Shown: positions 30,910 to 50,411 of the stretch, piece by piece
How positions within the stretch are numbered: position 1 is the first letter of the stretch
How the letters are laid out: every line of letters begins with the position of its first letter
Virus record (IMG/VR): IMGVR_UViG_3300029122_000292
Length of the DNA: 64,000 nucleotides
Strand: one strand, 5' to 3'
Source: a virus
The notes under the pieces: model-generated
Database searches by the model: none
What the model was told of the DNA's origin: nothing
Seen by the model: the letters and a program-made list of their open reading frames with translations, nothing else
Program-made: the position numbers and the translations under genes

Positions 30910-30914
30910 TTCAG

Positions 30915-31315: not shown

Positions 31316-31540
31316 ATGAAAAAACATAAAGATTTATTGCTGGCAGCCTGCGCATCGGCTGTTTCGTTTTTGAGTCTCGATGATGTTTTTGAGAAACTTC
31401 TACGGCACATCTCGCTTGTTCAAATGGCAACAGGAAACATAAGTTCTCTTTACGGACGTGTCAGCGAGTTGGCTCTTTCGGTATCTGTGGCTCTGTCGCT
31501 TGCGATTGGAGCTGTGGTATATATTTTATTCAAAAATTAA
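31316..31540 (+). CDS. small membrane protein (74 aa)
   Basis: Hydrophobic N- and C-terminal segments. Confidence 0.45.
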   Translation: MKKHKDLLLAACASAVSFLSLDDVFEKLLRHISLVQMATGNISSLYGRVSELALSVSVALSLAIGAVVYILFKN

Positions 31541-31552
31541 AAGGAGGAACGA

Positions 31553-32464
31553 ATGAAGAAGTTCAAAAAGATTTTCGTGGTTTCGTGTGCAATCGTGATG
31601 GCGTTGACCTTTACGGGGTGTACCAAGAAAGAGGTGTATACAATCGAACCTCATGAAACTGCATTTCTGATTTCACTCTCTGAGGGCGGTGGGAAACAGG
31701 CGTCCTTTGAGAGTGAGGCAATGCTCGCTGAAGCAAAGGTGGCAGCCAAACAGGTGTACATTACTTACTCGAAGCGACATCTGTCGCCGACTGACATCAT
31801 TGGTACTTGGGTACCGGATAACATGTTGGTTGTCGTCAATAGAACTCCTGTTACTCGTGAATGGTCCGAGGGCAAGGACAGTGGCACCAGCACTGTCAAC
31901 CAGTCCATCTCTGCCGAAAGCAAGGAGTCTATTGGCTTCTCTGTCGGTATGAACTGCTCTGCTCAGATCTACACTGAAAACGATGCAGTCAAGTTCCTGT
32001 ATTCCTACAACAACAAACAGCTCTCCGAGATTATGGATACTGAAATCCGTGCTCGTGTTGAAGCTGACTTTGTTGAAATGTGCGCCAAGTACACCATGAA
32101 TGAGATCCTTGAGAAGAAGGCCGAGATCATGGAGTATGTCCGCAAGGATGTGACTGAGTATTTTGCAGAACGCGGTATCACGATTACTGTCCTTGGTATG
32201 AAGGATGGCATTGAGTACGACGATGCGTCTGTTCAGGCTGCTATTAACAAGTCCTTTGTGGCTGAGCGCAATGATGAGGCGCAGGAGATTGAGAATCAGA
32301 CTAAGATTTCCAAGGCGAACGCAGAAGCCGAGGCGAATAAAATCATCTCTGAGTCTCTGACTGACCGGCTGATTCAGCAGCAGATGTATGAAAAGTGGGA
32401 TGGTAAGCTTCCTACTTATGTCGGCGGCGATGCCAGCATTCCTGTACTGAACGATATGAAGTAA
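31553..32464 (+). CDS. SPFH (band-7/prohibitin-like) domain lipoprotein (303 aa)
   Basis: Lipobox LTFTGC; Ala/Glu-rich coiled C-terminus typical of the SPFH family; GC3-rich. Confidence 0.6.
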   Translation: MKKFKKIFVVSCAIVMALTFTGCTKKEVYTIEPHETAFLISLSEGGGKQASFESEAMLAEAKVAAKQVYITYSKRHLSPTDIIGTWVPDNMLVVVNRTPVTREWSEGKDSGTSTVNQSISAESKESIGFSVGMNCSAQIYTENDAVKFLYSYNNKQLSEIMDTEIRARVEADFVEMCAKYTMNEILEKKAEIMEYVRKDVTEYFAERGITITVLGMKDGIEYDDASVQAAINKSFVAERNDEAQEIENQTKISKANAEAEANKIISESLTDRLIQQQMYEKWDGKLPTYVGGDASIPVLNDMK

Positions 32465-32553
32465 CCTCGTAGGAACGGAGACATTAAACCCGTGTCCTGA
32501 GATCAACACAAGATCTAAAAACTGTGTGGCAGCTCGGAAAGACGAGCAAGTAT

Positions 32554-32636
32554 GTTTCGGTGCTGGAATCGGCAGACAGGGGAGTCTCAAAAACTTCTGC
32601 GAAAGCATGTGGGTTCAAGTCCCATCCGAAACGCCA
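32554..32636 (+). tRNA. tRNA-Leu (anticodon CAA), type II
   Basis: Acceptor GTTTCGG/CCGAAAC, anticodon loop CTCAAAA, long variable arm, T-loop TTCAAGT, CCA. Confidence 0.7.
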
Positions 32637-32759
32637 TGGGTGAGTTGCGTCGCCCAAAAATCTCCTTTTCCTCACAAATGCTTAGTGGCTCATGAGTTCC
32701 AGACATGAATCACCGTGACTGAACAAGTCGTAGCAGGTACGCAATCCTGTTTTTGATAA

Positions 32760-32845
32760 GTCGGTATGGTGGAATAGGCGAGACACGTCTGCTTTAGGGA
32801 CAGATGCTTAAGTGCATGTGAGTTCAAATCTCACTACCGACACCA
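32760..32845 (+). tRNA. tRNA-Leu (anticodon TAG), type II
   Basis: Acceptor GTCGGTA/TACCGAC, anticodon loop TTTAGGG, variable arm ATGCTTAAGTGCAT, T-arm GTGAG-TTCAAAT-CTCAC, CCA. Confidence 0.6.
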
Positions 32846-32995
32846 ATCTCGCATGGGTAGGATCTTTAGCGGTCAGATCCGGCCGCGCCTGTGCGAGATA
32901 CCACCCCCCTGTGGGGAATGTTAAATTTTTCCATGTACGTTATTCTCGGCTCGCTCGAAAGAGTGCAGCGTGCCTTTGTAAGCCGAGTATTTTAT

Positions 32996-33064
32996 GTGGC
33001 TGTAGCTCAGATGGTAGAGCAGCAAGCTAACTGCGCGCCGTTGGTTCAAGTCCAACCAGTCACT
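32996..33064 (+). tRNA. tRNA-like gene; anticodon arm not resolved by eye
   Basis: Acceptor GTGGCTG/CAGTCAC, D-arm GCTC-AGATGGTA-GAGC, T-arm GTTGG-TTCAAGT-CCAAC. Region between the arms is too short for a standard anticodon arm plus variable loop. Confidence 0.4.
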
Positions 33065-33183
33065 CCGATGCCCGCTTATAGGGTCTCATTCCTCCTATTC
33101 GGGCTTTACCTCTTTTCTTCCTTGTTATTCCCGGCTCCATGGCGAATGCTGTGGCAATAAGGCGTAGTAAGCTGGGTTTATAT

Positions 33184-33258
33184 GCAGCGGTCGTACATCG
33201 GCTAGTATATCAGCCTTCCAAGCTGAGGAGGTGGGTTCGACTCCCATTCGCTGCTCCA
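33184..33258 (+). tRNA. tRNA-Gly (anticodon TCC)
   Basis: Acceptor GCAGCGG/TCGCTGC, anticodon stem TCAGC/GCTGA, loop CTTCCAA, T-loop TTCGACT, CCA. Confidence 0.7.
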
Positions 33259-33566
33259 TCGTGTGCGACGGTTTGAGACTCCTACATGCAAATCCAGCCG
33301 GGTAAGTCCGTCCACAACCGGTGTAGGTAGACATCTTTACTCATTAGGTCTCTAACTAAATGAGGAATAGAAAATCAGTTGTTCCAGCTAGATCGGGGAT
33401 TGGCCGTTCATTGGCAAACGACAGGCATCACACCGGTAAATGATGCTGAGCCAAATAGGAAGGGGAATAAGGTGCAAGTCGAGTAGCTGTCGGACGAATA
33501 CTCTTCAGGTAGCCAGTAAACTGGAACGTAAAACGAATGTTGGCTGTTTCTGATTTTCTTTTATAT

Positions 33567-33653
33567 GCTACCATGATGTAACTGGCAGGCATGAGGGACT
33601 TAAAATCCCTTGCTGGAAACAGCGTGCGGGTTCAAGTCCCGCTGGTAGCACCA
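33567..33653 (+). tRNA. tRNA-Leu (anticodon TAA), type II
   Basis: Acceptor GCTACCA/TGGTAGC, anticodon stem AGGGA/TCCCT, loop CTTAAAA, long variable arm, T-arm GCGGG-TTCAAGT-CCCGC, CCA. Confidence 0.75.
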
Positions 33654-34616: not shown

Positions 34617-34874
34617 GTGAAGGTTTATGTTCTTTATGACTGTGTCGAAAATCCAGACGAGTGGGCGTTTGCTGGTGTTGAACACATTTATGCGAATCAT
34701 GCAGACGCGGTAGATCGGATGCAGGATTTGTTCTTAGAGTGTTTGAACGAACACGACATAAATAATGCAGAAAGTATGCGAGATAGCTATATTGACGATT
34801 GGGGAGCGCGTGTCGCGGACGTTCCGGCTGGTTATCGTCACACATGGACAATTACAGAGGAGACAGTTGTATGA
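34617..34874 (+). CDS. hypothetical protein (85 aa)
   Basis: ORF track. Confidence 0.45.
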   Translation: MKVYVLYDCVENPDEWAFAGVEHIYANHADAVDRMQDLFLECLNEHDINNAESMRDSYIDDWGARVADVPAGYRHTWTITEETVV

Positions 34875-35095
34875 AATACGATTTACATGTTGGGCAATTA
34901 GTTAGAATCGGCAATGAAGTGTCTGAAAACGATATGAATCGCAACAAAAGAGGGCGCATCGTAAGATTTGATAAAGATTACCCAGTTGTAGAGATGTTAG
35001 ACCCATTTACAAGTGGAGAAACAACGATTACTTGGTGCCCGCAGAGATTTTGGGAGCCGTGTCCAACAAAACTTACTTGCAAATCACTTCTGTGA
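34872..35095 (+). CDS. 74-aa SH3/KOW-like small protein with C-terminal ...TCKSLL tail
   Basis: ORF 34799..35095 trimmed to MKYDLHVGQLVRI. Paralog of 41540, 42637, 42926 and 45562. Confidence 0.55.
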
Positions 35096-35147
35096 TTTTA
35101 TTTTTTGGTCACACAAACATAACTTAAATATATAAAGGAGCGAAGAA

Positions 35148-35273
35148 ATGGTTATCAAGTATGTTGACGGCCACTATGAAATCGTATCGGCGGATAGTGG
35201 TCAGTTTATTCAGTCGGCCGATACATGGGACGAAGCTCTGGATAATATGAAGGAGCTACTACAAACCGCATAA
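35148..35273 (+). CDS. very small protein (41 aa)
   Basis: MVIKYVDGHYEIVSADSGQF... preceded by AAAGGAGCG and the CACAAAC..ACTTAAATATA motif. Confidence 0.4.
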   Translation: MVIKYVDGHYEIVSADSGQFIQSADTWDEALDNMKELLQTA

Positions 35274-35332
35274 GGTACAACGGGTGATTGCCCGTTTACA
35301 TATCAATCTTTAATTACAAAGGAGAAAACATT

Positions 35333-35755
35333 ATGAAAGCAATCGTTAAGTTCAACAATCTGTTCGTCACTTCCGCATACGATGTCGCTACCCTGAAGAA
35401 GGTCGAGAAGTTCCGTCCCGAGGCTTTGAAGCTGTATGAGGGCGAGGGCAAGGAGAAGAAGCTTGTGAGCGCCATTGCTGTTGCTTCTAAGGATGATATT
35501 AGCAAGTTCGGCGTGGCTTTTGCTCAGGATGCAGTCACTGGCGATAAGGTTGCCGTTTTGAGCCGTCCTGTTCCTGCTGGTATGAAGTCTGAGGCAGAGA
35601 TCAAGGAGTGGGTTCGCGACATGATTGGTCTGACCATTGTTCGCGGCACCAAGATCGAGGAGCAGATCGCAGCCGCTATGGAGTCCATCAATGCTGATGA
35701 GGCTGCCATGAATGCTGCAATCACTATCGATGGTGAGGACGCAGACGCCGAGTAA
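35333..35755 (+). CDS. hypothetical protein (141 aa), GC3-rich; probably abundant
   Basis: ORF 35288..35755 trimmed to MKAIVKF after AAAGGAGAAAACATT. Confidence 0.6.
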   Translation: MKAIVKFNNLFVTSAYDVATLKKVEKFRPEALKLYEGEGKEKKLVSAIAVASKDDISKFGVAFAQDAVTGDKVAVLSRPVPAGMKSEAEIKEWVRDMIGLTIVRGTKIEEQIAAAMESINADEAAMNAAITIDGEDADAE

Positions 35756-35852
35756 GAGCGCTGCTGAGGTTCCACGCCGGATGTTCCTGCGCAATACGTC
35801 CGGCATTTTAACGAGTAAACGATATTTTTCAAATTAAAAAGGAGTACATACT

Positions 35853-36092
35853 ATGATTAAGATTTGGGTTACCACTAATGACGACAAGATCGAGGACGTT
35901 GTTGCTACCAGCATGACCCCGAAGGACGTGTTCGCAAAGCATGGCGTGAACTACGCCAATGGCCAGAGCACTCTGGATGGCTGCATTCTGACGGTGGCAC
36001 AGCTGAACACTCCGCTGTCTGAGCTGGGCGTCGGCGATGAGGTGTATCTGGCCTCCATCTCCAAGCACGACAATGCGACTGGTATGAACTGA
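35853..36092 (+). CDS. 79-aa protein with possible MoaD/ThiS-like beta-grasp (ubiquitin-like) fold
   Basis: MIKIWV... N-terminus and GDEVYLASISKHDNATG near the C-terminus resemble MoaD (MIKVLFF... GDEVAFFPPVTGG). No terminal GG unless processed. Confidence 0.35.
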   Translation: MIKIWVTTNDDKIEDVVATSMTPKDVFAKHGVNYANGQSTLDGCILTVAQLNTPLSELGVGDEVYLASISKHDNATGMN

Positions 36093-36235
36093 TCGCGCTG
36101 ATCCGAAAATAAACAACTGAATTCGTTATTGGTTACAACGATATTCTAAACACTGCAGCCGCTGGCAGGCCGGTTAAAGTCTGCCTTATATGTGTCCAGT
36201 ATCTGGGCTTTTAAATTAAACAGGAGGAAATACAT

Positions 36236-37753
36236 ATGGCTTTCACAGCTTATTCCAGCAAGATCGGTTCGAGAGATTGCGACGAAGCATATCCGTTGAT
36301 TCTGAATTGCGACAATAGCAATCTCAACGATAATGTGATGTTGTCTGTACTGCGCGTACTGATCAATGATGACCGTATCAAGCATTCTATTTCGGGAGGG
36401 CATCGCATTCAGTCAATTATTGATTGCCAACAGTTCTATATGGGCGACGACGAAAAGTTCACTAAGGACATGTTCGTTCATGAAGATAACGCTTTCAATC
36501 AGATGAAATTTGGCATCATGTTTCAGACGATCGACGATAAGAAAGCAGACGCCATTATTTCTGAGTTCAAGAAGTACAATGCGGATTACGAAGCTGCCGG
36601 TTGGAAGATCATGGATGTCGCAGCTAAGTACATCGATAAGAATGGCAACGTCTATGTATATCAGAATGAAAAGAAGCAGGGTGTTGTCGTTGTTTGTGCT
36701 AAGAAGAATCTGATTCAGGCCATGCACATGGCGGCGAGTTGTTTGCCAAACCTGATGCCGTGGTTTTTCGCTGATCAGCCGCTGACTGATGATGAGAAGG
36801 CGATGCTGCGTACTCTTTATGATCAGGACAACGAAGCTTTCGGCAAATACATGGAGAAGGCATACGAGACCGGCGATTTCTATGGTAAGAAGTTGCGTGG
36901 CGCTCTGAAGGGATTTTGCAAGAAGGATTATGCAAACGAAATTACCCGGCAGGAGCGATATATTCGTGAAATCCAAGATGAAATCGAAAGAAAATATAAC
37001 GATATCCGTGAGAGAAATAAAAATCTTGAAGAAGCTCAATTTAAACTCACTATGATCATGGACCGTGCTTGCTGCACTGAGGATGACGAAGCTGCAATTG
37101 TTAATTTCCTGAAGCGCTGCAAGACGCTGGTTTATCTTGACTCCAATAGTGATCGAATCTCTATTGGTTATGTTGGCACGCTAAACGATTGTGATGAGGG
37201 CGAGTTCCGCACTTGTGTTGAGAAAAAGGCAAATAGTCGAAGCTACATTTTTCAGCGTTCGCCGTATGACACGGAACTTACGAAAGATTTCTTTGTGTCA
37301 ATTTGGAAGACCCATCGGTTCGCTATTCGCACCTACTGTGAATGGCGACTGTATTCCAGCTGCAAGGTTGAAGCAATTCGTGGTTCTGATATGCAAGGTC
37401 GCTCTGATTTGATGAAGGATCGTATTCGTCAGCCCCATATCGATCGGCATGCGTGCTATAGCGGTTATCGAGAGATGCTCAATGCGCTTAGTGTAAAACA
37501 CGATTACATTGGCGTCCTGACTACGATTATTGGTTCAAGCGCATCTATCAACTGGAAGGATGGCACCGTTGTAAGCGACCTCATGTACGATTTGTTTGAC
37601 GAATACTATATCAAAACTCGTAAGTGTATCGAGGATAACGCGGGTAATCTGTACACGGTGGCAGAAGTATTTGATATTCTCAAGAACGAAAAGGACGCAG
37701 CAGCAACAGCAGAAGCAGTAAAGAAGGAGGTCGCTAAAGATGAAGCCCATTAA
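36236..37753 (+). CDS. hypothetical protein (505 aa)
   Basis: ORF track; GGAGGAAATACATATG. Confidence 0.6.
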   Translation: MAFTAYSSKIGSRDCDEAYPLILNCDNSNLNDNVMLSVLRVLINDDRIKHSISGGHRIQSIIDCQQFYMGDDEKFTKDMFVHEDNAFNQMKFGIMFQTIDDKKADAIISEFKKYNADYEAAGWKIMDVAAKYIDKNGNVYVYQNEKKQGVVVVCAKKNLIQAMHMAASCLPNLMPWFFADQPLTDDEKAMLRTLYDQDNEAFGKYMEKAYETGDFYGKKLRGALKGFCKKDYANEITRQERYIREIQDEIERKYNDIRERNKNLEEAQFKLTMIMDRACCTEDDEAAIVNFLKRCKTLVYLDSNSDRISIGYVGTLNDCDEGEFRTCVEKKANSRSYIFQRSPYDTELTKDFFVSIWKTHRFAIRTYCEWRLYSSCKVEAIRGSDMQGRSDLMKDRIRQPHIDRHACYSGYREMLNALSVKHDYIGVLTTIIGSSASINWKDGTVVSDLMYDLFDEYYIKTRKCIEDNAGNLYTVAEVFDILKNEKDAAATAEAVKKEVAKDEAH

Positions 37754-38636
37754 TATCACGGAGCAGGTTGTAGCAGATATGGCACGTGAATTTGTTCAGG
37801 AGCTGTATAAGACCGGTAGGGTTAAGACGGATTCTTTCTCATACAAGAAGAATTTTGCGTCTGTTAAAAAGGATGCTGTCGAGGTGAATTTCACCTATGA
37901 AGCGTATTCTCAGATGTTTGCGTTGATTGATCACTTCGATTGTGAGGTTGCATGGCGCGGCATTGTGAATCGTATCGATAAGACGCATTTTCAGATTACC
38001 AAGATTCTGCTGTATCCTCAGACTGTGACTGGTACCACAGTGGACACCGATCAGGAAGAATTTTCAAAGTGGTTTCAGGCGCTGCCTGTTGAAACGATTC
38101 GCAACCTGAGATTTCAGGGACACAGCCATGTCGATTTCGGTGTAACGCCGAGCAGTCGCGATATGGAGGATCAGTGGCGATTCATTGACGGACTCAAGCC
38201 GACGAGTTATCAGATTTTTATGATTTGGAACAAGAAGCGTCAGTATAACGTTCGCGTCATTGATCTGGCCGACAATGTCATCTATGAGGGAGCCGATGTC
38301 AAGGTTACTGTTGGAGATTTTGACTCGACTCGATTTCTCGAGGATGCAGACAAAACGGTTCGAAAGCGCCCTGTATATGTCGCAAGCACAGTCGCAAATT
38401 ACGGAGCTTATGGAGCAGGCACCTATTATGGTAAAGCAGTTACGCCGCAAAAAACGTACCCGCAAACAGTTACCACGCAAACGCCAGTGCCGCAAATCAA
38501 GACGGTAACTGGCGCAGCGGCTCCGAAAGTCAAGGAAGTGTCTGAGACTCGATATCCATTGGTCAATCATTACAAGGAGAATCCAGAAGATCTTGATACG
38601 TGCTGGAATTCCAGCTGTTTTCCGTATGACAATTAA
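37740..38636 (+). CDS. JAMM/MPN+ family metallopeptidase (298 aa)
   Basis: Canonical JAMM motif HSHVDFGVTPSSRD (HxHx7Sx2D) with upstream Glu. Confidence 0.65.
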   Translation: MKPINITEQVVADMAREFVQELYKTGRVKTDSFSYKKNFASVKKDAVEVNFTYEAYSQMFALIDHFDCEVAWRGIVNRIDKTHFQITKILLYPQTVTGTTVDTDQEEFSKWFQALPVETIRNLRFQGHSHVDFGVTPSSRDMEDQWRFIDGLKPTSYQIFMIWNKKRQYNVRVIDLADNVIYEGADVKVTVGDFDSTRFLEDADKTVRKRPVYVASTVANYGAYGAGTYYGKAVTPQKTYPQTVTTQTPVPQIKTVTGAAAPKVKEVSETRYPLVNHYKENPEDLDTCWNSSCFPYDN

Positions 38637-38651
38637 AGAAAGGACTACAAA

Positions 38652-39326
38652 ATGAATCTGAGTAAGCTTGAAATGGTATTCAACCCCGATGATATCAGCG
38701 GCCAGATCCACATTATTGGTTGTGGTTCGGTTGGCTCTACTGTGGCGGAACTTCTTGCACGGTATGGTCTGAAGAATTTCACGCTGTGGGATATGGACGA
38801 GGTTGAAAGCAAGAATATCGTCAACCAGATGTTCTTCGCCAACAATATTGAAGCTCCAAAGGTCGAGGCGGTTCGCGATATTATCTGTGCCATCAATCCT
38901 GATGCCAAAGATGAAATTGTTCTGAAGCCGAATGGTTGGCAGGGTGAGATGATTCGCGGTTATGTATTCCTCGCGGTCGACAATATCGAAATTCGCAAGC
39001 AATTCATGGAGGCGAACAAGTACAATCCGAATATCAAGGGTGTGTTTGATGTCCGCACCGGGTTCCATGATGCACAGTGCTGGGCAGCAGATTGGAGTAA
39101 GGAAAAAGACCGAGAGAATTTATGGAACTCTATGAATTTCTCTCATGAAGATGCACAGGCTGGCACTCCGGTTTCTGCATGTGGCATCGTTCAAGGTCTC
39201 GCCCCGACTGTTCGTTTCGTGTGTTGTTTGGCGGTTACGAACTTTATCAATTTCGCGACTAATATCGCACCTTTGAAGAAAATGATCGTTGCAAATCCGT
39301 ACACTTTTAACGTTACGGCTGCATAA
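38652..39326 (+). CDS. ThiF/MoeB-family E1-like adenylyltransferase (224 aa)
   Basis: Rossmann motif IIGCGSVGSTVAELLARYGL followed by LWDMDEVESKNIVNQ, as in the E1/MoeB/ThiF nucleotide-binding site. Confidence 0.65.
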   Translation: MNLSKLEMVFNPDDISGQIHIIGCGSVGSTVAELLARYGLKNFTLWDMDEVESKNIVNQMFFANNIEAPKVEAVRDIICAINPDAKDEIVLKPNGWQGEMIRGYVFLAVDNIEIRKQFMEANKYNPNIKGVFDVRTGFHDAQCWAADWSKEKDRENLWNSMNFSHEDAQAGTPVSACGIVQGLAPTVRFVCCLAVTNFINFATNIAPLKKMIVANPYTFNVTAA

Positions 39327-39375
39327 AGAATAAATAAAAAAAAATCGTGATGAATTACTGTTGAAATATACAGTC

Positions 39376-39393
39376 CTGCCGGATGACCGACAG
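39376..39393. promoter_or_regulatory. 18-bp imperfect palindrome CTGCCGGATGACCGACAG, copy B, at the head of the 290-nt leader upstream of the RT
   Basis: Identical at 18/18 to copy C and 17/18 to copy A. Confidence 0.5.
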
Positions 39394-39620
39394 GTTCGTA
39401 AAGGTAAGATCATATACATCCCACCGGGAAACCGAGGCGTGTGATCGCATGCGATGTACGTCGGCTCCGCAGGTATGCTGATTCGCTGATCGAAATAATC
39501 AACGTAGACACGTGCCGGCAATGAGCTCAAAACGCAAACCCGCAGGAAGACGTCCCGTCGAAGGCACCTCCCTGAGCATACAAACCACCATTTAGATCAC
39601 GATTTAGAAGAGGTAAACAT
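39394..39620 (+). ncRNA. candidate structured ncRNA / RT-associated RNA in the non-coding region upstream of the RT
   Basis: About 230 nt with no ORF; contains the perfect 12-nt palindrome ATCGCATGCGAT and several GC hairpins. Identity as msr/msd-like RNA is inference only. Confidence 0.3.
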
Positions 39621-40856
39621 ATGTACGTTACTTATTGGAATCCGCCGAGAACAAGGCAGATTACGTTTGATGAAATCCTTAGTGGAGTCGTTGACGTGAA
39701 CCAGTTGAAATATGCTGGCGATGAAACTTCTACTCGAACTGTACAGCGTAATGGGTTGAATGATCGTCTCGTAGCAATTACAAACGTTACCAATATGATT
39801 GCACGGCTCGCGGAATTCAATCAGAAATACGCTCGTCTTGAAGCAGTACGTGACCTGTCGACGTATTACTATCACTTTGAAATTCCCAAGAAGACTGGTG
39901 GCGTTCGTCCAATTGATGCACCGAACAATGAACTGAGCGATGCGTTGGTTGAGTTGCGGACGCTGTTAAAAAGTTTCATGATTGCTGATTATCACACGGC
40001 AGCACACGCATATATCAATGGGCGCGGCACTCTGAGTGCAATTAAAAAGCATCAGGCGGGACACAGATATACAGTAAAAGATCGTGAGACTGGGAAAGAA
40101 AAGATCGTCACCTATGAAAACAACTGGGCTGTCAAGTTTGACTTTCATGGATTCTTCCCGAGCTCCACTCCTGAGTTTATCTACAGTATGTTCAGAAAGA
40201 TTTATCCGTTTTCTCTCATTATGAAGGATCGAAATGGATACAATCAGCTGACTAAAGCGATGCGCCTGTGCTTCTTGAACGGCGGTCTTCCGCAGGGAAC
40301 GCCAATCAGTCCGTGGATCACGAACGTTATGATGATCCCGTTTGATTATATGTTAAACAAGAAGCTTTCTTACAAATATACCATGAAAGACGGCATTTCT
40401 CGCACTTTTACATACACCAGATATGCAGACGATATCACCATCAGCTGCTATTTGAGTTTTGACCCGATGGAAATGCAGGATATTATCAAAGAGACGTTGG
40501 ACGCAATCAATGCTCCGTTTACTTTGAATGAAGAAAAAACGCATTATGGTAATCGGCATTCGAGCGAAAACTGGATGCTCGGTCTGATGTGGAACGCCAA
40601 TAACGATATCACAGTCGGATGGCGCAATTTTAAGGACTTCAAGAAGATGGCATCTAATTACATCATCTGCAAGAAAGAAGGGAAAACGTGGGACCTTGAA
40701 GACTTGCAGCAGTTTAATGGCAGGCTGAATTACTACCGTATGGTAGAAAAAGAATCGGTTGACACGGTGATTTCTCGGTACAACGAAAAGTATCGTGTTG
40801 ATATGATGGCAATGCTCAAAGCTGACTTAAAACCAAAAGAAGGAGTTGTTTTCTAA
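39621..40856 (+). CDS. reverse transcriptase, retron/group-II-like clade (411 aa)
   Basis: RT motifs IPKKTGGVRPI, FDFHGFFPS, GLPQGTPISP, YTRYADDITIS; N-terminal similarity to retron RTs. Confidence 0.85.
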   Translation: MYVTYWNPPRTRQITFDEILSGVVDVNQLKYAGDETSTRTVQRNGLNDRLVAITNVTNMIARLAEFNQKYARLEAVRDLSTYYYHFEIPKKTGGVRPIDAPNNELSDALVELRTLLKSFMIADYHTAAHAYINGRGTLSAIKKHQAGHRYTVKDRETGKEKIVTYENNWAVKFDFHGFFPSSTPEFIYSMFRKIYPFSLIMKDRNGYNQLTKAMRLCFLNGGLPQGTPISPWITNVMMIPFDYMLNKKLSYKYTMKDGISRTFTYTRYADDITISCYLSFDPMEMQDIIKETLDAINAPFTLNEEKTHYGNRHSSENWMLGLMWNANNDITVGWRNFKDFKKMASNYIICKKEGKTWDLEDLQQFNGRLNYYRMVEKESVDTVISRYNEKYRVDMMAMLKADLKPKEGVVF

Positions 40857-41194
40857 TGATTGAAATGATGTGTAGAGATGGCGGCACTCCAGTTGAATTG
40901 CTCGATCAAGCGGCAAGTGTCGTAGAGGAATCCATTGGGTGTCCAGTTGACCTGTTGGATATCGACGACCACAGAGCAATGGTCTATTGGGGGCCGTCTG
41001 ATGTTGCAAGCGCAATCAAGGAGCTTGGCATCAAAGAAATCGATGCAGAGGATATGAGCTTATGTGCAGATCTCTTGTGCGATTTTGAAGTGAATATTCA
41101 TCAGGCAATGCTTGAGGCCGGACACGACGCTCTACAGAGCTGTTTGGAATGTCTTGTTGATGAACTGCGAAAACAGGACAAAGAATCCAAGTAA
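40856..41194 (+). CDS. small acidic protein translationally coupled to the RT (112 aa)
   Basis: ATGA overlap with RT stop. Confidence 0.55.
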   Translation: MIEMMCRDGGTPVELLDQAASVVEESIGCPVDLLDIDDHRAMVYWGPSDVASAIKELGIKEIDAEDMSLCADLLCDFEVNIHQAMLEAGHDALQSCLECLVDELRKQDKESK

Positions 41195-41241
41195 TTATAT
41201 ATTGTAATCTCTTTTGAATATCGGGCGTTTTACGTCGCGAG

Positions 41242-41259
41242 CTGCCGGATGACCGACAG
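41242..41259. promoter_or_regulatory. 18-bp imperfect palindrome CTGCCGGATGACCGACAG, copy C
   Basis: Followed by about 280 nt of hairpin-rich non-coding sequence (for example GCTGCCTGAGTTGGCAGC). Confidence 0.5.
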
Positions 41260-41539
41260 TTATGAAGAATACCATAGCACGCTCATACGGGCTCCATGGG
41301 CTGCCTGAGTTGGCAGCCTCGCCCTCCTGAGCTATGGATCAAATTAGTTCGCAAGCACGGAGTCTCCGTTCTGCAGCCTAGATCCCAGCAGAGCTGGAGA
41401 TCGCGGCTGCAATCGCTGCGACTCATTGGCCATCAGAACATTTACTCGACAATGCTTCCGGGATCAAAGATCCCTCCAAATTATCTCGCAAATGTTCTTC
41501 CAGCCAACTGTTACTCACAATTTAGAAAAGAGATTGATT

Positions 41540-41803
41540 ATGGATTACAAATATAAAATTGGACAAAAAGTACGAATTCGGAAAGACTTGACAGCTGGTG
41601 CAGAATATCCAATGCAGAGCGGAGAAAGCTATGGTTGCAATCCGGGAGTTAATGAAGATATGGAAAGATACCGTGGTCAACTTATGACAATCGATCGCCA
41701 AACATACGGTGTTTATACGCTCTGTGAGGACAACGAATATTGGAGTTGGACTGACACGATGTTTGAGTCTCCAAAACCACTTACATGTAAAAGTCTTTTG
41801 TAA
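41540..41803 (+). CDS. 87-aa SH3/KOW-like small protein with C-terminal ...TCKSLL tail
   Basis: ORF 41426..41803 trimmed to MDYKYKIGQKVRIRKDL. Confidence 0.55.
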   Translation: MDYKYKIGQKVRIRKDLTAGAEYPMQSGESYGCNPGVNEDMERYRGQLMTIDRQTYGVYTLCEDNEYWSWTDTMFESPKPLTCKSLL

Positions 41804-41817
41804 AGGAGTGAATTTTA

Positions 41818-42633
41818 ATGGCAGAAACCGCAAAGAAAGTGGCACAAAAAACCATTCTTTTCCCAGTTGAAGATCAGCCTGCAAAACTCGTCGTTACAGA
41901 GGACGATATTGAACGAATTATTCAGCAGGCAGTTAAAAGTGCCACTGCAACGAAAAAAGCACGGAAACCTCGTCGGACGGACAGTCTTTATCTCAAGGAT
42001 GGGCGTAGAAAGCCAACCCCGGCAGATCCTATCAAGTCAAAGGAAGATTTTAAGAAAATTGTTGATTATCTTGGATCAAATGGCACTGAAGAAATTGCGC
42101 TCAGGAACAAAACACTATTCATTCTCGGCTGTTCAATTGGTGTTCGATGCGGCGATTTGTTGAAGCTTAAAACGGCTGATGTTTATTATGAGAACGCTCA
42201 TGTAAAAGATCATGTTGAGCTGATCGAACAGAAGACCGGCAAGCGAAACGTGTGTAAGATTTCTCATATGGCAAAAGAAGCTTTAAGAGAATATTATCAG
42301 GCAATTAGTTTTCGAATTGACCGCGACACGCTTCTTTTTCAGAGCAAGAAAGGTGGACAGCTTAACGTTAGATCAGTGAGCAACCTTTTGAAGAAGGCTG
42401 GTAAGGCGTGTGGTTTGAATATTGAGTTATCTACTCACACTATGCGTAAAACTTATGCTATGGCCGCGTTACAGAGTGCAGAAGGTACAGTTGATGAAGC
42501 GAACATCGTGAGTATTCTGCAAAACAAATTTAACCACAGTAATCAGCGTATTACGATGAGATATATCAAAATGGATCAAGAAAAACTTGATGAAGTCTCT
42601 GAGAATGTTTCCGACTGGTTTGAAGGAGAATAA
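41818..42633 (+). CDS. tyrosine recombinase / phage-integrase-family catalytic domain protein (271 aa)
   Basis: Arg I (GVRCGDLLKL), HxxR (THTMRKTYA) and catalytic Tyr (ITMRYIKMD). Confidence 0.7.
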   Translation: MAETAKKVAQKTILFPVEDQPAKLVVTEDDIERIIQQAVKSATATKKARKPRRTDSLYLKDGRRKPTPADPIKSKEDFKKIVDYLGSNGTEEIALRNKTLFILGCSIGVRCGDLLKLKTADVYYENAHVKDHVELIEQKTGKRNVCKISHMAKEALREYYQAISFRIDRDTLLFQSKKGGQLNVRSVSNLLKKAGKACGLNIELSTHTMRKTYAMAALQSAEGTVDEANIVSILQNKFNHSNQRITMRYIKMDQEKLDEVSENVSDWFEGE

Positions 42634-42636
42634 GCT

Positions 42637-42909
42637 ATGAATTATAGATTTAAACCCGGTGACAAAGTGACCGTTAGAAAAGATTTGGCGACATATGAAA
42701 CGTATCATATGTTATCTGGAGAAACCCCATGTGATGCCATTATTGCTACTTATTCTATGGAAAATCTTCGAGGGAAACAAGTCACAATCGAGAACTATGA
42801 TTGTTGTGGGAGTGCAATGTGTTACAGGGTAAAAGAAAGCTCCAGATATTGGGCAGATGAAATGTTTGAAGAGTCTAAAAAGCCGTTTACGTGTAAAAGT
42901 CTATTATGA
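42637..42909 (+). CDS. 90-aa SH3/KOW-like small protein with C-terminal ...TCKSLL tail
   Basis: ORF track; KPGDKVTVRKDL...WADEMFE. Confidence 0.6.
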   Translation: MNYRFKPGDKVTVRKDLATYETYHMLSGETPCDAIIATYSMENLRGKQVTIENYDCCGSAMCYRVKESSRYWADEMFEESKKPFTCKSLL

Positions 42910-42925
42910 AAAGAGGTAAGAGAAC

Positions 42926-43210
42926 GTGTCGAAAAGCAAGTACAAATATAAGAATGGAGAAGCAATTCGCGTCAGGGAAGATCTTCAATCTGGAACAGTT
43001 TATTACATGAGATCTGGTCCAGAACCGGATGCCAATGGTATTGAGACGTCATGGAGTGGACGTGGACAAGTAGGTTATCGTGGACAAATTGTACATATTT
43101 CTCACAAAGCAAACGGTCGATACAAAATTCTTGAAGACGGAAAAACATATTATTATACGGATGAAATGTTCGATCGTCCAAAGAACTTGATTTGCAAAAG
43201 TTTGTTGTGA
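42926..43210 (+). CDS. 94-aa small protein with C-terminal ...ICKSLL tail
   Basis: ORF track; GTG start after AGAGG. Confidence 0.55.
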   Translation: MSKSKYKYKNGEAIRVREDLQSGTVYYMRSGPEPDANGIETSWSGRGQVGYRGQIVHISHKANGRYKILEDGKTYYYTDEMFDRPKNLICKSLL

Positions 43211-43219
43211 GGTGATTGT

Positions 43220-43375
43220 ATGAATGAAATCTGGTGCGTGATTGAATGCAGTTCAGATGGCGAAATCTTTCAGCCTGATTTTTTCAATTCAAAGGAAGAT
43301 GCGGCTGCATTTATTGAGGAAGAGACAAAAGAATGTCTTTTCAATATGGCAGATTTACCTGGGCTGATAGAATGA
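43220..43375 (+). CDS. very small acidic protein (51 aa)
   Basis: Own translation MNEIWCVIECSSDGEIFQPDFFNSKEDAAAFIEEE...; GAGGTGATTGTATG. Confidence 0.35.
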   Translation: MNEIWCVIECSSDGEIFQPDFFNSKEDAAAFIEEETKECLFNMADLPGLIE

Positions 43376-43489
43376 CCGATATCGTTGACGGGGAACCGAT
43401 TGGAGGGGTATGGACGGATAAATACAGTTGGGTTTGGCATAGCTTTGAAGTTACTAATAAAATTGAAAAATTAAAGGAGAATAATAACA

Positions 43490-45562
43490 ATGTCTGATTT
43501 CAAGAAATTTCGTGCACTGCTGCAGAACCACTTCAATGAGATGGTGAAGGGTGAGAATCCACTGTTTATCACCGATGCAGACGAGGATGAACTGTACAAT
43601 CTGTATCTTGATAGTTTCCCGGCCGGCACAAATGAGCTGTTCCGTAAGCGGCGCGAGTATGACTGTTCCTGCTGCCGCCGTTTTGTGAAGAATATCGGCA
43701 AGCTGGTGGCGTTTGACAAGAATTATAATTTGATTTCCATCTGGGATTTCGATGCAAAGTCTGCCAAGTATCAGCCTGTTGTTGATACGCTGGCTGCCTA
43801 TGTAAAGAGCCGCGCCATTGTGAATCCGTACTTTGTCAGTCGCAATATGATCGGTTCTGGGAATATGTTCGGCACCGAGATGAACTACGAGTATGATGAA
43901 AACCACAATGATGTATATACTTGGGATCATTTCGCAGTCAAGATTCCGCAGCGTTTTATTACCAGTGGAGATGACGTGGCTACCAAGATGGCACAGTGGC
44001 GTGACTCCGCAAACGTGTTCAAGCGTTCTCTGGAAGAGCTAACCATGGAGGCTGTTGATACTGTGCTGGAGCTGATTGCTCAGAATAGTCTGTATCGCGG
44101 CAAGGAGTTTGAGCGATCTGTAAAGGAGTTTAAGCACGATAAGATTGACTATGACAAACTGTCTGTTAATGAAAAGCTTGCCTTTGTATGGCTTGCCCCT
44201 ACGTATGCTACGGCGGCGCAGCTTCGTATTCGTAACACCGCTATCGGCACCCTTCTTATCAATTTGAGCGAAGGTATGAACGTGGATGCAGCCGTTACTG
44301 CCTTCGAGAAAGTTGTTGCTCCCGCAAACTATAAGCGTCCCAAGGCGATTTTCACCAAGAAGATGTTGGAAGATGCACAGAAGACTGTCACCGAGCTGGG
44401 CTATATGAGCAGTCTGGGTCGTCGGTTTGCTACTCTGGATGATATCACCGCCAACAATATCTTGTTCTGCAACCGTGATGCTGCTTCTCGTATTGCTGGT
44501 GCTACAAATCCGTTTGAAGCAATGGCTAAGACTGTTGCGATTGATCCCAAGAAGTTTAACCGTGCAGAAGAAATTGGCATCGACAAGTTTATCAAAGACG
44601 TGCTGCCGACTGCAACTGGTTTGGAACTGTTCATGGAAAATCGTTTCGAGAAGAATATGATGTCTCTGATTGCACCGCAGGATAAGACTGCGCCGAGCAT
44701 GTTCAAGTGGCCGAATGGTTTCAGCTGGGCATATACCGGTAATGTGACTGACAGTCAGATCCGCGAGAACGTCAAGAACGCTGGTGGCAAAGTCGATGGC
44801 GTGCTGCGTTTCTCTATTCAGTGGAACGATAAGCCGGGTGAATGGGATGAAAACGATCTCGATGCCCACTGTGTTGAACCGAATGGCTTTGAGATCTATT
44901 ACGGCGACAAACGAGATTTGCGTACCGGTGGTAATCTGGACGTGGATATCATTCATCCTAATTGTAATAAGGCGGCTGTTGAGAACATCACTTGGTCTGA
45001 CATCAAGAAGATGAAGGATGGCGAGTATAACTTTTCTGTTCATTGCTTCTCTAACCGTGGCGGCAAAACCGGCTTCCGCGCAGAGATTGAATTTGATGGT
45101 CAAATCTACTCCTTTAATTATAATATTCCGCTGCGTCAGACTCAGATTGTTTCTGTTGCTACTGTTGTGTTGAAGGATGGGCAGTTTACTATTAAGGAAC
45201 ATCTCAATAGTTCTACTTCTTCCCGTGAGATCTGGGGTGTGAATTCCAATCAGTTCGTACCTGTGTCTGTGGCGATGTACTCTCCGAACTACTGGGATGA
45301 GCAGACTGGCAATGGCAACCGTCACTACTTCTTCATGCTCAAGGATTGCGTCAACCCTGAAAAGCCCAATGGTTTCTACAACGAATTCCTGAAGGCGGAA
45401 CTGCTACAGCATAAGCGTGTGTTCGAGGCTCTCGGTTCTCAGATGGCGGTTCAATCGGTGGATGACCAGCTGTCTGGTGTTGGCTTCTCTGAGACGAAGC
45501 ACGACTCCCTCATTGTCAAGGTGCAAGGCGCTACTGAGCGAGTTCTGAAAGTGGTGATTTAA
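43490..45562 (+). CDS. hypothetical protein (690 aa), GC3-rich
   Basis: ORF track; AAGGAGAATAATAACAATG; no recognisable motifs. Confidence 0.7.
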   Translation: MSDFKKFRALLQNHFNEMVKGENPLFITDADEDELYNLYLDSFPAGTNELFRKRREYDCSCCRRFVKNIGKLVAFDKNYNLISIWDFDAKSAKYQPVVDTLAAYVKSRAIVNPYFVSRNMIGSGNMFGTEMNYEYDENHNDVYTWDHFAVKIPQRFITSGDDVATKMAQWRDSANVFKRSLEELTMEAVDTVLELIAQNSLYRGKEFERSVKEFKHDKIDYDKLSVNEKLAFVWLAPTYATAAQLRIRNTAIGTLLINLSEGMNVDAAVTAFEKVVAPANYKRPKAIFTKKMLEDAQKTVTELGYMSSLGRRFATLDDITANNILFCNRDAASRIAGATNPFEAMAKTVAIDPKKFNRAEEIGIDKFIKDVLPTATGLELFMENRFEKNMMSLIAPQDKTAPSMFKWPNGFSWAYTGNVTDSQIRENVKNAGGKVDGVLRFSIQWNDKPGEWDENDLDAHCVEPNGFEIYYGDKRDLRTGGNLDVDIIHPNCNKAAVENITWSDIKKMKDGEYNFSVHCFSNRGGKTGFRAEIEFDGQIYSFNYNIPLRQTQIVSVATVVLKDGQFTIKEHLNSSTSSREIWGVNSNQFVPVSVAMYSPNYWDEQTGNGNRHYFFMLKDCVNPEKPNGFYNEFLKAELLQHKRVFEALGSQMAVQSVDDQLSGVGFSETKHDSLIVKVQGATERVLKVVI

Positions 45563-45834
45563 TGGCTCGTTACAAAGTCGGAGACAAGGTACGCTTAATC
45601 GATAATTTTGTGCAATACGAAGAGTATCATATGCGAGATCGGAATAACAATCCCGGATATACTATAACAGTCAAGTGGTCATTAGAAGAAAGAATGAAAC
45701 TTGCTGGAAAAATTGTGACGATTGCTGAAGTTGGAGAATACTACCGAATCGAAGAAGACAACCATAGTAAACATTGGACTGATGATATGTTTGTTGGCAC
45801 GGCAAAATGTCTTGTTTGTCGGTCGTTACTGTAA
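45562..45834 (+). CDS. 90-aa SH3/KOW-like small protein with C-terminal ...VCRSLL tail
   Basis: ORF track; ATGG overlap with upstream stop. Confidence 0.6.
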   Translation: MARYKVGDKVRLIDNFVQYEEYHMRDRNNNPGYTITVKWSLEERMKLAGKIVTIAEVGEYYRIEEDNHSKHWTDDMFVGTAKCLVCRSLL

Positions 45835-46255: not shown

Positions 46256-47359
46256 ATGAAAGTTGTTGAAAGCGCAAGCAATCTGTTCCTGTATGGCGAC
46301 GATATGAAGGCGTATGACAAGATCCCGGCGGGTACCTATGATATCCACTGTTCTGAGATGACCGGTTTCTATCTGTCCCGCCGCCCTGATATGGTCATCA
46401 ACGAAAAGGTGTATGGTGTCCAGAGTGGCAAGGTTGCCAAAGTGCTGAATTCGTTCAAAGCGTTCAATCGTAACTTGGGTGTCATCCTCAGCGGCAATAA
46501 AGGCATCGGCAAATCTCTGACCGCTAAGATGATTGCAATCGAGGCTATTAAGCAGGGCTATCCTGTCATTCTGGCTAACCGCTATATCGGCGGTATCGCA
46601 AATTTCATCGAATCCATCAATCAGGAAGTTATGATCCTGTTTGACGAGTTTGATAAGACCTTCAAGTCCCGGGACAATGAAAATCCGCAGGATACGATGC
46701 TGAGTCTGTTCGATGGCACCAGCGCGGGCAAAAAGCTCTTCGTTGTCACCTGTAACCAGCTCAATGGCCTGAACGATTATCTGGTCAACCGTCCCGGCCG
46801 CTTCCACTATCACTTCCGCTTCGATTATCCGGGCGCTGACGAGGTAGAAACCTATCTCAAAGATAAGCTCGAAGAGAAGTATTACGATCAGATCCCAGCT
46901 GTGGTCGATTTTTCTGGCAAGATCGATCTGAACTACGACTGCCTGCGGTCTATTGCTTTTGAACTGAATCTTGGCACTCCATTCGCAGAAGCCATCAAGG
47001 ATCTGAATATCATCAATATGAACGAGACCAGCTACAAGATCACTGTTTTATTCAAGGATGGTTACCGTACGTCCTGCACCAAGCGTTTTGATATGTTCAA
47101 TGGTGCACAGCGTATCTATTTTGAGATCAAACTGAAGGATGGCTTCTGGCCTGATTGCTACATCAACACCGAGGATATCCAGTATAACCCCGCCAACGGC
47201 GAGCAGTTCATTGATGGCAAGAAGGTTGATGTGGTCAATCCGTATTCTAAGAACGTAGAGGATGAAAAAGATCGCTATGAAGCCTTTGAAAAGGATAATG
47301 GCGTGGCCAAGGTCATCATTTCTCGTGCTCGTGAAAGAGACATTCACTACATGGTCTAA
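46256..47359 (+). CDS. classic AAA-family ATPase (367 aa)
   Basis: Walker A GNKGIGKS, Walker B ILFDEFD, sensor-2-like NRPGRFHYHF. Confidence 0.75.
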   Translation: MKVVESASNLFLYGDDMKAYDKIPAGTYDIHCSEMTGFYLSRRPDMVINEKVYGVQSGKVAKVLNSFKAFNRNLGVILSGNKGIGKSLTAKMIAIEAIKQGYPVILANRYIGGIANFIESINQEVMILFDEFDKTFKSRDNENPQDTMLSLFDGTSAGKKLFVVTCNQLNGLNDYLVNRPGRFHYHFRFDYPGADEVETYLKDKLEEKYYDQIPAVVDFSGKIDLNYDCLRSIAFELNLGTPFAEAIKDLNIINMNETSYKITVLFKDGYRTSCTKRFDMFNGAQRIYFEIKLKDGFWPDCYINTEDIQYNPANGEQFIDGKKVDVVNPYSKNVEDEKDRYEAFEKDNGVAKVIISRARERDIHYMV

Positions 47360-47370: not shown

Positions 47371-48198
47371 ATGGTCAAAGCAAATTATTATGAAATCAGT
47401 TCTTTCCCTGATGGCACTCCGCTGATTAAGAAGGATAAAGCTATCAATTATCTCAATGCGATCAATATCGTTTGGACGTTTGAATCCATGGCAGAGCTCC
47501 CCACAGTCATTATGATCGCAAAGGACGCAAAGGATAACGGGGCAGAAGTCGAGCTGTTTATGCCGTATATTCCGAACGCTCGTATGGATCGCGTTCATAG
47601 TGACGAGGATGTGTTTACTCTCAAGTGGTTCGCAGAGGAGATCAATCGATGTGGGTTCAGCTGCGTCAACGTGTTCGATCCCCACAGTGATGTGGCTCCC
47701 GCATTGATCAATCGTTGCGAGGTACATACTCCGATTCGTGAAATCTGTCAGGCAATCGAGGAAAGCAAGCCTGATGTGGTCTATTTCCCAGATGCCGGCG
47801 CAATGAAACGGTACGAAGGAACTGTTCACTGGGCACTCGATCGTGTCGGTTGTAAGGCTTATATCATTCACGGAGACAAGAAGCGTGACTGGAAGACCGG
47901 AAAGATTCTCGGCTTGGATGTCACCGGTTATCCTCCAAAGGGTGGCAAGGTTCTGATGATTGACGATATTTGTTCTTACGGTGGCACTATGTTCTATTCG
48001 GCCAAGAAGCTGAAGGAACTGGGTGCTGGTGATATCGATATGTATATCAGCCACTGCGAGAACAGTATTCTGGATTCTGAGCGCGGCCATCTGTTTGATA
48101 ACCCGGATCTGATTCATATGGTCTATACCACGGACAGTATCTTCACTGGCCATCACGACAAGGTCACTGTATTAGAGCATCATTGGGATGAGGACTGA
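47371..48198 (+). CDS. prs: ribose-phosphate pyrophosphokinase (PRPP synthetase) family; either Prs or the Prs-like ADPR-PP synthetase (Adps) of phage NAD+ reconstitution pathways
   Basis: Type-I PRTase/PRPP-binding loop KVLMIDDICSYGGTM; size and layout of Prs. Confidence 0.7.
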   Translation: MVKANYYEISSFPDGTPLIKKDKAINYLNAINIVWTFESMAELPTVIMIAKDAKDNGAEVELFMPYIPNARMDRVHSDEDVFTLKWFAEEINRCGFSCVNVFDPHSDVAPALINRCEVHTPIREICQAIEESKPDVVYFPDAGAMKRYEGTVHWALDRVGCKAYIIHGDKKRDWKTGKILGLDVTGYPPKGGKVLMIDDICSYGGTMFYSAKKLKELGAGDIDMYISHCENSILDSERGHLFDNPDLIHMVYTTDSIFTGHHDKVTVLEHHWDED

Positions 48199-48490
48199 TA
48201 TGAAATTTAACAAAGAAGAAGTCTATAACGCTCTTGATATTCTGACTTGTCAAATCCAAGAGTCTGACGAGGTCGGATGGTGTTGTAAGCAGGAACTGAA
48301 AAATGTCCTTGACGATTACTTCAATTGAATCGAAAGCAAGAAAGTCGTAGTCGATCCAAAATATGAAAGCTATAGATGCCCAAAGTGTAATACAACGTTA
48401 ATTGGTCAATATGATCACTACTGCAGACAATGTGGTCAAAAATTGGACTGGAGGATTAACGATAAAAGTTAAGATTTAAGGAGAATTGGC

Positions 48491-48667
48491 ATGAATTACT
48501 TTGAGTATGAAAAATTCGATATCTCTGACAAAGCAGCGAAGGTGGCGGAGTGGCTCAGGGAGCACGGTGATGATTTTATCACCATTGAAGGGTTGAATCT
48601 TAACTCAAGTGGTTTGGCTGACAATCTTGAAACGTTGGCGTATGTCCTTCGTGGTAGAGTTGAATAA
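48491..48667 (+). CDS. small protein (58 aa)
   Basis: AAGGAGAATTGGCATG; ORF below the track cutoff. Confidence 0.4.
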   Translation: MNYFEYEKFDISDKAAKVAEWLREHGDDFITIEGLNLNSSGLADNLETLAYVLRGRVE

Positions 48668-48695
48668 AAGCTGAGATTTAAGGAGAGGATTTGAA

Positions 48696-50407: not shown

Positions 50408-50411
50408 GTTC

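Follow-up and report, generated by a model that had tools for sequence, protein, structure and literature searches.

The question raised by this locus is why several small genes, scattered around a reverse transcriptase (RT) gene and a tyrosine recombinase gene, should all encode the same few C-terminal residues. The locus belongs to a 64,000-nucleotide stretch of viral DNA, IMG/VR record IMGVR_UViG_3300029122_000292, which is referred to below, at its full length, as the window. A sequence-only reading had pointed to five paralogous SH3/KOW-like proteins ending in C-x-S-L-L, and had suggested either a cassette or diversification arrangement or a family of host-takeover or anti-defence binders. 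In this study, we report that the C-x-S-L-L tail is a C-terminal tag used throughout the genome of the window phage, on at least 13 small proteins that are otherwise unrelated, that codon usage shows it to be selected at the amino-acid level, and that it changes in concert across the genomes of related gut phages. On these comparisons, a probability of roughly 0.55 is given to a reading of the tail as a modular docking peptide at the C-terminus, co-evolving with one phage-encoded receptor. Docking peptides common to many proteins are a known kind of device; no description of the present motif was found in the searchable literature.

The C-terminal tail and its flavours

A six-frame scan of the window found 13 open reading frames (ORFs) of at least 40 amino acids (aa) ending in C-x-S-L-L-stop, whereas 200 codon-shuffled versions of the window contained 0.045 such ORFs on average and never more than one. 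Five of them are the ORFs singled out before, which indeed all lie on the plus strand and end in C-[KR]-S-L-L-stop: 34871..35095 (the 't' protein, 74 aa, tail PTKLTCKSLL), 41540..41803 (87 aa, PKPLTCKSLL), upstream of the recombinase gene, 42637..42909 (90 aa, KKPFTCKSLL), 42926..43210 (94 aa, PKNLICKSLL) and 45562..45834 (90 aa, AKCLVCRSLL), directly after the gene for a DUF8224 protein. The first of these starts at 34871 and not at 34872 as previously given, since translation from 34872 runs into stops. The remaining eight form an uninterrupted run on the minus strand (7874..10512), between the genes for an antirepressor and an RNA polymerase, the latter lying directly downstream of the cluster. 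They are 10030..10512 (an early protein of 160 aa, VQLTCRSLL), 9686..10033 (115 aa, KSFVCHSLL), 9395..9658 (87 aa, KPLTCRSLL), 8979..9398 (139 aa, KNLVCHSLL), 8541..8948 (135 aa, RPLRCRSLL), 8332..8544 (70 aa, KSFICRSLL), 8108..8350 (about 75-80 aa, KSFVCHSLL) and 7874..8095 (73 aa, KPLRCKSLL). Their bodies are mutually unrelated, and scans of Pfam, PHROG, NCBIfam and PADLOC placed none of the eight in a family. The tail is thus present on all five proteins for which it had been described but is not a trait specific to their family, as eight unrelated ORFs share it. In the window, the conserved stretch comprises about nine residues, K-[PSN]-[LF]-x-C-[KRH]-S-L-L, and is predicted to be disordered; it is found on about one in eight genes of the 64-kb window and on hundreds of genes in related gut phages.

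Codon use in the tail was compared across the window and its relatives, in 547 distinct tail genes. All six Ser codons occur (AGT 190, TCT 131, TCA 91, TCG 73, AGC 57 and TCC 5), as do all six Leu codons, which argues for selection on the peptide and not on the DNA or RNA. None of the 547 genes ends in TAG, a stop used by four of the 87 long ORFs of the window; these four lie on the strand opposite to their neighbours, or overlap better-supported genes or the transfer-messenger RNA (tmRNA) gene. As the long ORFs are intact under genetic code 11, the rarity of TAG looks like avoidance and not recoding.

The closest relatives of the window phage are uncultivated human-gut contigs of about 100-150 kb. 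Their loci were gathered around five anchors, namely the genes for DUF8224, the RNA polymerase, a Bro-N protein, a 279-aa protein and the terminase; the tail counts cover the fetched loci, and the phage collection holds no complete close genome. In the first set of loci, S-L-L is the commonest C-terminal tripeptide (518 of 20815 ORFs, the next reaching 83). The tail is borne by at least 20 families that are unrelated to one another by BLAST, all small proteins (43-201 aa) and mostly of the early-gene region. It occurs in several versions, called flavours here: B, that of the window (K-P-[FL]-x-C-[KRH]-S-L-L); A (N-E-C-x-C-[ED]-S-L-L); C (x-x-F-x-S-L-L), in one phage; D (P-F-x-C-x-N-L-L); and E (F-C-C-x-[SG]-L-I). 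Counting the C-terminal residue as position 0, N, Q or G stands at -2 in the tails of some relatives. The core common to the flavours is hydrophobic-x-[C/F]-x-[S/N/T]-L-[L/I]-COOH, and its alternation (hydrophobic or Cys at -6 and -4, small polar at -2, Leu at 0) would be compatible with an extended strand whose terminal carboxylate is recognised.

Flavour is a property of the genome. On first scoring, 50 of 56 loci were pure, and the remaining six were scored as mixed through one tail each, with Tyr for Cys at -6 (e.g. NEYYCTSLL). In each of the 39 contigs that yielded both the early and the DUF8224 region, about 30 kb apart, the two have the same flavour (30 A/A and 9 B/B). Five body families, including those of the ORFs at 10030..10512 and 8541..8948, carry either an A or a B tail, depending on the genome. 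For an SH3-like body, the most similar protein is usually encoded in another genome, of another flavour; the protein encoded at 45562..45834, for example, is 55% identical to a type A protein and 36% identical to its own paralogs. In one pair the bodies are 86% identical and the tails differ (YDLRFESLL and NECYCESLL), and the DNA identity of about 90% extends up to the codons for WTDDMF and then collapses through the stop. Since the closest bodies bear other flavours, the paralogs predate the flavours, with each genome giving its bodies a tail of its own; these comparisons show that the tail is swapped when a body enters a genome of another flavour. The cleanest natural swap of specificity is provided by the flavour C phage (L023/L324, IMGVR_UViG_3300045988_127729), in which every tail has Phe for Cys, on about 11 SH3-like paralogs and six unrelated early proteins, and whose terminase matches that of one flavour B phage at 100% identity.

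One tag on many unrelated proteins, changing in concert from genome to genome, points to docking, with the motif and a single receptor evolving together. The phage would append an address peptide of about nine residues to at least 20 unrelated small-protein families, and all the tails would dock onto one common receptor, probably by strand addition together with recognition of the free carboxylate. The sharing of alleles across flavours suggests that this receptor would be phage-encoded rather than host-encoded. The variable bodies, SH3-like peptide-binding folds among them, may then be interchangeable heads on a constant handle, and docking could result in the recruitment of targets, in modification, in turnover or in assembly. 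A shared tag of this kind offers a direct handle on phage dark matter, as the identity of the hub would give more than 20 orphan families a common context, and the genome-specific flavours amount to a natural experiment on specificity, with cognate and non-cognate tails. The flavours also look like an incompatibility system that limits the exchange of modules among mosaic phages.

The search for a receptor and the competing explanations

Alleles were compared all-versus-all between genomes, because identity to the window alone is misleading when flavour B has several deep allele classes. For most genes the A and B alleles are up to 81-100% identical, and the phages are strongly mosaic. The maximum A-B identity is 100% for the RNA polymerase, 97% for PhoH, 95% for DUF8224, 99% for the AAA ATPase, 98% for NAMPT, 99% for the terminase TerL, 93% for the portal and 86-99% for the other head genes of the next 10 kb or so. 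Alleles this similar across flavours imply that phages of different flavour recombine, and we infer that they share hosts; a host-encoded receptor is therefore an unlikely source of flavour specificity.

Apart from the tail genes, one set is consistently flavour-specific in the approximately 95 kb surveyed, a block at 35330..42633 on the plus strand. It consists of the genes for p155 (35330..35755, maximum A-B identity 67%), a 79-aa candidate ubiquitin-like protein (Ubl; 35853..36092, 48%), p505, an E2/RWD-like protein of 505 aa (36236..37753, 44%), a JAB protein (37740..38636, 55%), a ThiF/E1 protein (38652..39326, 74%), a retron-type RT (39621..40856, 68%), the acidic 112-aa p112 (40856..41194, 47%) and the small tyrosine recombinase of 271 aa (41818..42633, 62%; Pfam Phage_integrase 2.4e-17, phrog_216). 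The block of the flavour C phage is also distinct, its identity to the A and B alleles being no more than 41-70%. Values below 75% between A and B were also obtained for a helix-turn-helix protein (55063..55464) and two tiny ORFs, in comparisons limited to flavours A and B or to few loci. The ThiF hit (Pfam, 7.4e-21) provides an E1 adenylation domain, and the same protein matches the E1 part of CBASS E1-E2 models. The JAB protein contains the motif HSHVDFGVTPSSRD, of the form H-x-H-x7-S-x2-D, and its hidden Markov model (HMM) support is weak (PADLOC JAB, E 0.003). The candidate Ubl ends in HDNA(R/TGMN) and not in GG. No NCBIfam or PADLOC model for the Ubl-conjugation systems of Bil or CBASS was matched by the block, searches with p505 and the JAB protein against PDB sequences found nothing, a search for more distant lineages containing p505 returned only the same lineage, and the literature on phage E1/JAB proteins and YorP yielded nothing relevant. 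Between flavours, the net charge of p112 and ThiF shifts in a direction complementary to that of the tails and that of the JAB protein does not, which is a lead only. On this pattern of divergence, the 35.3-42.6 kb block is the leading but unproven location of the putative receptor.

Several points weigh against the docking model or against this placing of the receptor. Since the block and the SH3-like arrays are interleaved, plain linkage may account for the block's association with flavour. Locus L064 keeps seven tail genes without JAB, E1, RT or recombinase genes at the locus, and L069 and L076 carry four tail genes on another backbone with no block within 10 kb. Among about 60 scanned proteins of the window, there was no receptor of PDZ, TPR or protease-domain type, and the survey took in about 95 kb of a genome of about 150 kb. 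Gene conversion between paralogs could also homogenise the tails within arrays, but it cannot explain a common flavour on unrelated families about 30 kb away.

The tail might instead be a virion-targeting tag, which sends the small proteins into the capsid for co-injection by way of a scaffold, portal or capsid receptor. Many unrelated and hypervariable small proteins sharing one short tag are familiar from the internal protein (IP) loci of phage T4, the copy number of the arrays varies, and a receptor encoded by the phage would fit genome-specific flavours. We hold this explanation to be unlikely all the same: the operons that hold the tail genes are early or non-structural (from the antirepressor to the RNA polymerase, and among the NAD-salvage, RT and E1 genes), none was present in the surveyed head module, and TerL, the portal and the head genes that follow are, as given above, too similar across flavours to carry the specificity.

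It is quite unlikely, in our view, that the tail is a handle for Ubl chemistry, in which the E1 would adenylate the C-terminal Leu and make each tail protein a Ubl-like modifier, or the tail would dock proteins onto the E2/RWD-like p505 as substrates or interchangeable specificity adaptors. More than 20 families, the expanding SH3-like one among them, would thereby be plugged into a phage Ubl machine made up of the candidate Ubl, p505, JAB and E1, and, if this were true, the phage would encode a modular Ubl ligase whose co-evolution with its handle defines incompatible flavours among recombining phages. The association that suggests it is confounded by physical linkage, however, and L064 retains its tails in the absence of JAB and E1 from the locus. 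Known E1 substrates end in Gly, Ala or Asn and not in Leu-Leu, the block has a candidate Ubl of its own, and the charge of the JAB protein shifts in the wrong direction.

Delivery of early proteins to a protease, with the tail acting as a degron for a host enzyme (ClpXP, FtsH or similar) or for a phage AAA+ ATPase, is distinctly improbable. A hydrophobic, disordered C-terminus on early proteins would be in keeping with it, as would the phage's own tmRNA and the gene for a classical AAA+ ATPase (46256..47359; Pfam AAA, 9.5e-12) that adjoins the member at 45562..45834. Host proteases are conserved, however, whereas the tails can be acidic in one phage and basic in another that probably uses the same hosts; the alleles of the phage ATPase are 99% identical across flavours, and the invariant Ser at -2 and the Leu-Leu end of the window tails are unlike a degron of the LAA type.

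Little credence can be given to a signal in the nucleic acid (a ribosome binding site, promoter, terminator or recombination hotspot) or to thiol chemistry at the Cys (a thiolactone as in autoinducing peptides (AIPs), lipidation or metal binding). In four of the 13 window tails (8332..10033, minus strand, CRSLL) the sequence TGT AGG AGY YTN YTA TGA combines an AGGAG with an ATGA stop-start overlap, both serving the gene that follows, and Arg at -3 seems to be chosen where such translational coupling is used; this use of the tail codons is secondary, because the other nine window tails lack it, and against a nucleic-acid signal in general stand the full degeneracy of the codons and the absence of an internal Shine-Dalgarno sequence from most tails. 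The spacing from the Cys to the carboxyl end equals that of staphylococcal AIP rings such as CSSLF, but Phe replaces Cys at -4 on about 17 proteins of the flavour C genome, which makes thiolactone, lipid and metal chemistry unlikely, and these three ideas were dropped for that reason. An AgrD-type precursor is not what was found either: the tail ends at the would-be ring, the bodies are folded (70-160 aa), and there is neither an AgrD-like leader nor a C-terminal recognition segment.

SH3-like proteins and the order of their genes

The SH3/KOW-like assignment made from the sequence alone was right, and the fold could be specified further. AlphaFold2 predicted for the member at 42637..42909 a confident five-strand SH3-like barrel with a low-confidence tail, and not an unrelated fold; the nearest structure is the Mib repeat of Mind bomb (Pfam SH3_15). 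The best window member (45562..45834) scores 16 bits against SH3_15 (E 0.015), below the gathering threshold of 24 bits, and homologs found with the family profile exceed it (for example P0062 with 44 bits and P0053 with 36 bits). A profile search of 1.84 billion representative proteins returned 2852 relatives, the best of which are mostly long, tail-less proteins with two to six tandem copies of the domain that pass the SH3_15 threshold. The same profile had no match among PDB sequences. The five ORFs are single-domain members of this large phage family of SH3_15 beta-barrels, like the Mib repeat of Mind bomb, and their domain falls in a populous, uncharacterised phage branch. A role as binders, as had been proposed, is plausible.

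The claim of a five-member paralog family needs one amendment. Four members are clear, with 25-38% identity to one another, and match the HMM of phrog_7488 (function unknown) with E values of 4e-10 (that of 41540..41803), 7.7e-12, 2.8e-4 and 9.8e-6. The protein encoded at 34871..35095 had no match to phrog_7488, was placed by BLAST in a separate cluster, and represents a shorter sister subfamily; HHalign joins its group to the main family with a probability of 96% (E 2.7e-9), a score raised in part by the shared tail. Likewise, the motifs Y[KR]x[KP]G[DQE]xV, G[KQ]xVxI and W[AT]D[ET]MF were found in the four main members, whereas the fifth lacks the central segment and WxDxMF.

Three family members flank the recombinase gene, as had been noted, and this arrangement is conserved in the relatives; the position of the recombinase gene inside the SH3-like array is kept even in a distant lineage. 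The gene order in 57 syntenic loci, written in gene symbols, is t-a-u-b-J-E-R-c-S(1-3)-Int-S(2-5)-DUF8224-S(1-5)-d-A-P-N, all collinear and on one strand, with nothing inverted or shuffled. Copy number alone varies, in three fixed slots, the window having the fewest copies (1, 2 and 1); in locus L006 the counterpart of the gene at 45562..45834 is absent from that position. In the gut phages of about 150 kb, the SH3-like genes thus form three tandem arrays that expand and contract. The DUF8224 gene (43490..45562, plus strand, 690 aa; phrog_1735, with PF26675 annotated in the syntenic locus L002) is a conserved landmark between these arrays and does not track flavour.

No inverted or direct repeats were found around the copies, save the similarity of the tail-coding sequence, and the window contains no pair of template and variable repeats. 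By its matches, the RT belongs with those of retrons (NCBIfam retron St85, 3.5e-43) and not with those of diversity-generating retroelements; an Rfam scan of 33-47 kb gave tRNAs only, with no retron msr. The proposal of cassettes that the tyrosine recombinase or the RT would shuffle, invert or diversify is hardly credible, since, although copies flank the recombinase gene in every relative and vary in number, the paralogs are old (25-45% identity) with orthologs across genomes, and a fixed order without recombination sites is the outcome that the sequence-only reading had itself set against it.

An exact 18-nucleotide direct repeat, CTGCCGGATGACCGACAG, at 39376..39393 and 41242..41259, brackets the RT gene and the ORF for the very acidic 112-aa protein that overlaps it, and non-coding stretches of about 290 and 345 nucleotides lie on either side of this pair.

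Other features of the phage and comparison with known systems

The window derives from a large phage and encodes an AntA/KilAC antirepressor, PhoH and NAD-salvage proteins, 9-10 tRNAs and a tmRNA; a terminase gene lies just outside the window, beyond its start. The hosts of this lineage of gut phages of about 150 kb are likely Firmicutes and probably Lachnospiraceae. Relatives of the DUF8224 protein, with at most 57% identity, occur in bacterial genomes (Lachnospiraceae, Bacillales and other prophages), and the bacterial DUF8224 loci contained no SH3-like genes, no tail genes and no host copy of the tag. The RNA polymerase downstream of the minus-strand tail cluster is a single-subunit enzyme of 849 aa, YonO-like as in SPbeta (4496..7045, minus strand; Pfam RdRP PF05183, 2.8e-14).

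The tRNA cluster (28922..33653) includes three tRNA-Leu genes (CAA, TAG and TAA) and the tmRNA gene (29113..29499, plus strand) with the unusual tag ANYNSYRCAA; a further tRNA at 32996..33064 is an Rfam match that was not called by ARAGORN. A twister-P5 ribozyme (21777..21866, plus strand; 47.1 bits against an Rfam gathering score of 37.6) sits in the ORF-poor part of higher GC at about 12-27 kb. A 223-aa protein (30238..30909, plus strand) has an N-terminal CX3CX2C motif (GCHYSCPEC) and a strong match to phrog_17662 (2.3e-79), with only faint matches to radical-SAM models (NrdG2 and YhhB, E about 5e-4).

A cluster for NAD salvage and ADP-ribose metabolism occupies 47371..52631 on the plus strand. 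Its first ORF (47371..48198, 275 aa) has an N-terminus suggestive of a ribose-phosphate pyrophosphokinase and is not annotated by Pfam in L002; the genes after it, named as in the Pfam annotation of that syntenic locus, encode NAMPT (48696..50174), a macro domain (50412..50885), an NAD synthase (50887..51651) and an isochorismatase/nicotinamidase-like protein (52059..52631). Further along, 60503..62059 (plus strand) encodes a protein with a MazF/PemK-like toxin domain (Pfam, 1.2e-08) and then a second recombinase-like protein with an MrpR N-terminal core-binding domain, and an SLT lytic transglycosylase is encoded at 62140..62742.

The closest known counterparts of the SH3-like proteins are the Mib repeat of Mind bomb (SH3_15, PF18346) and YorP of the Bacillus subtilis phage SPbeta (PDB 2heq). 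From SH3_15 the window members differ in being single-domain proteins that score below the Pfam cut-off (16 against 24 bits) and carry the tail, which their multi-repeat relatives lack. The neighbouring block resembles the Bil (BilABCD) and CBASS Cap2/Cap3 operons in its order of small candidate Ubl, E2-like, JAB and E1 genes; it differs in being phage-encoded, in the 505 aa and RWD-like domains of its E2-like protein, and in a candidate Ubl without the GG end.

The tail itself has likenesses to several kinds of short peptide. With the beta-clamp motif (QL[SD]LF) and the gp45-binding tails of T4, it shares the principle of unrelated proteins that reach one hub through one short hydrophobic C-terminal peptide, and its xSLL core resembles the beta-clamp motif QMSLL of MutS. 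The Gln required by the motif is not conserved, however: position -4 is C or F, and -3 is charged (K, R, H, E or D). A conserved host clamp also fits poorly, because the flavours differ between phages that probably share hosts. The capsid-targeting sequence of the T4 IP loci is similarly a short tag, the sole common feature of hypervariable small proteins, with a phage-encoded receptor. That tag is N-terminal and cleaved, whereas the tail is C-terminal and encoded in operons of early or non-structural genes, and flavour is not tracked by the head genes.

Class I PDZ-binding motifs ([S/T]-x-hydrophobic at the C-terminus) are matched by the S-L-L-stop of all 13 window tails. Like the tail, they stand at the extreme C-terminus of unrelated proteins, with Ser or Thr at -2 and Leu at 0 in a disordered segment; the alternating pattern suits strand addition, and such motifs are also known on proteins of eukaryotic viruses. 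The present tails belong to a phage and bacterial setting, are conserved to about -8 with an invariant Leu at -1, and can carry N, Q or G at -2, depending on the flavour; the window scans turned up no PDZ protein. The ankyrin/PRANC (F-box-like) and BTB-kelch families of poxviruses have as their handle a folded domain that docks onto the host SCF, whereas the tail is a peptide of nine residues, and any tie to the candidate Ubl, E2-like, JAB and E1 genes of the phage is one of association. The tagged proteins are nevertheless alike in concept to these expanded paralog families, which join variable binding heads to a constant C-terminal handle that leads into a ubiquitin-type ligase.

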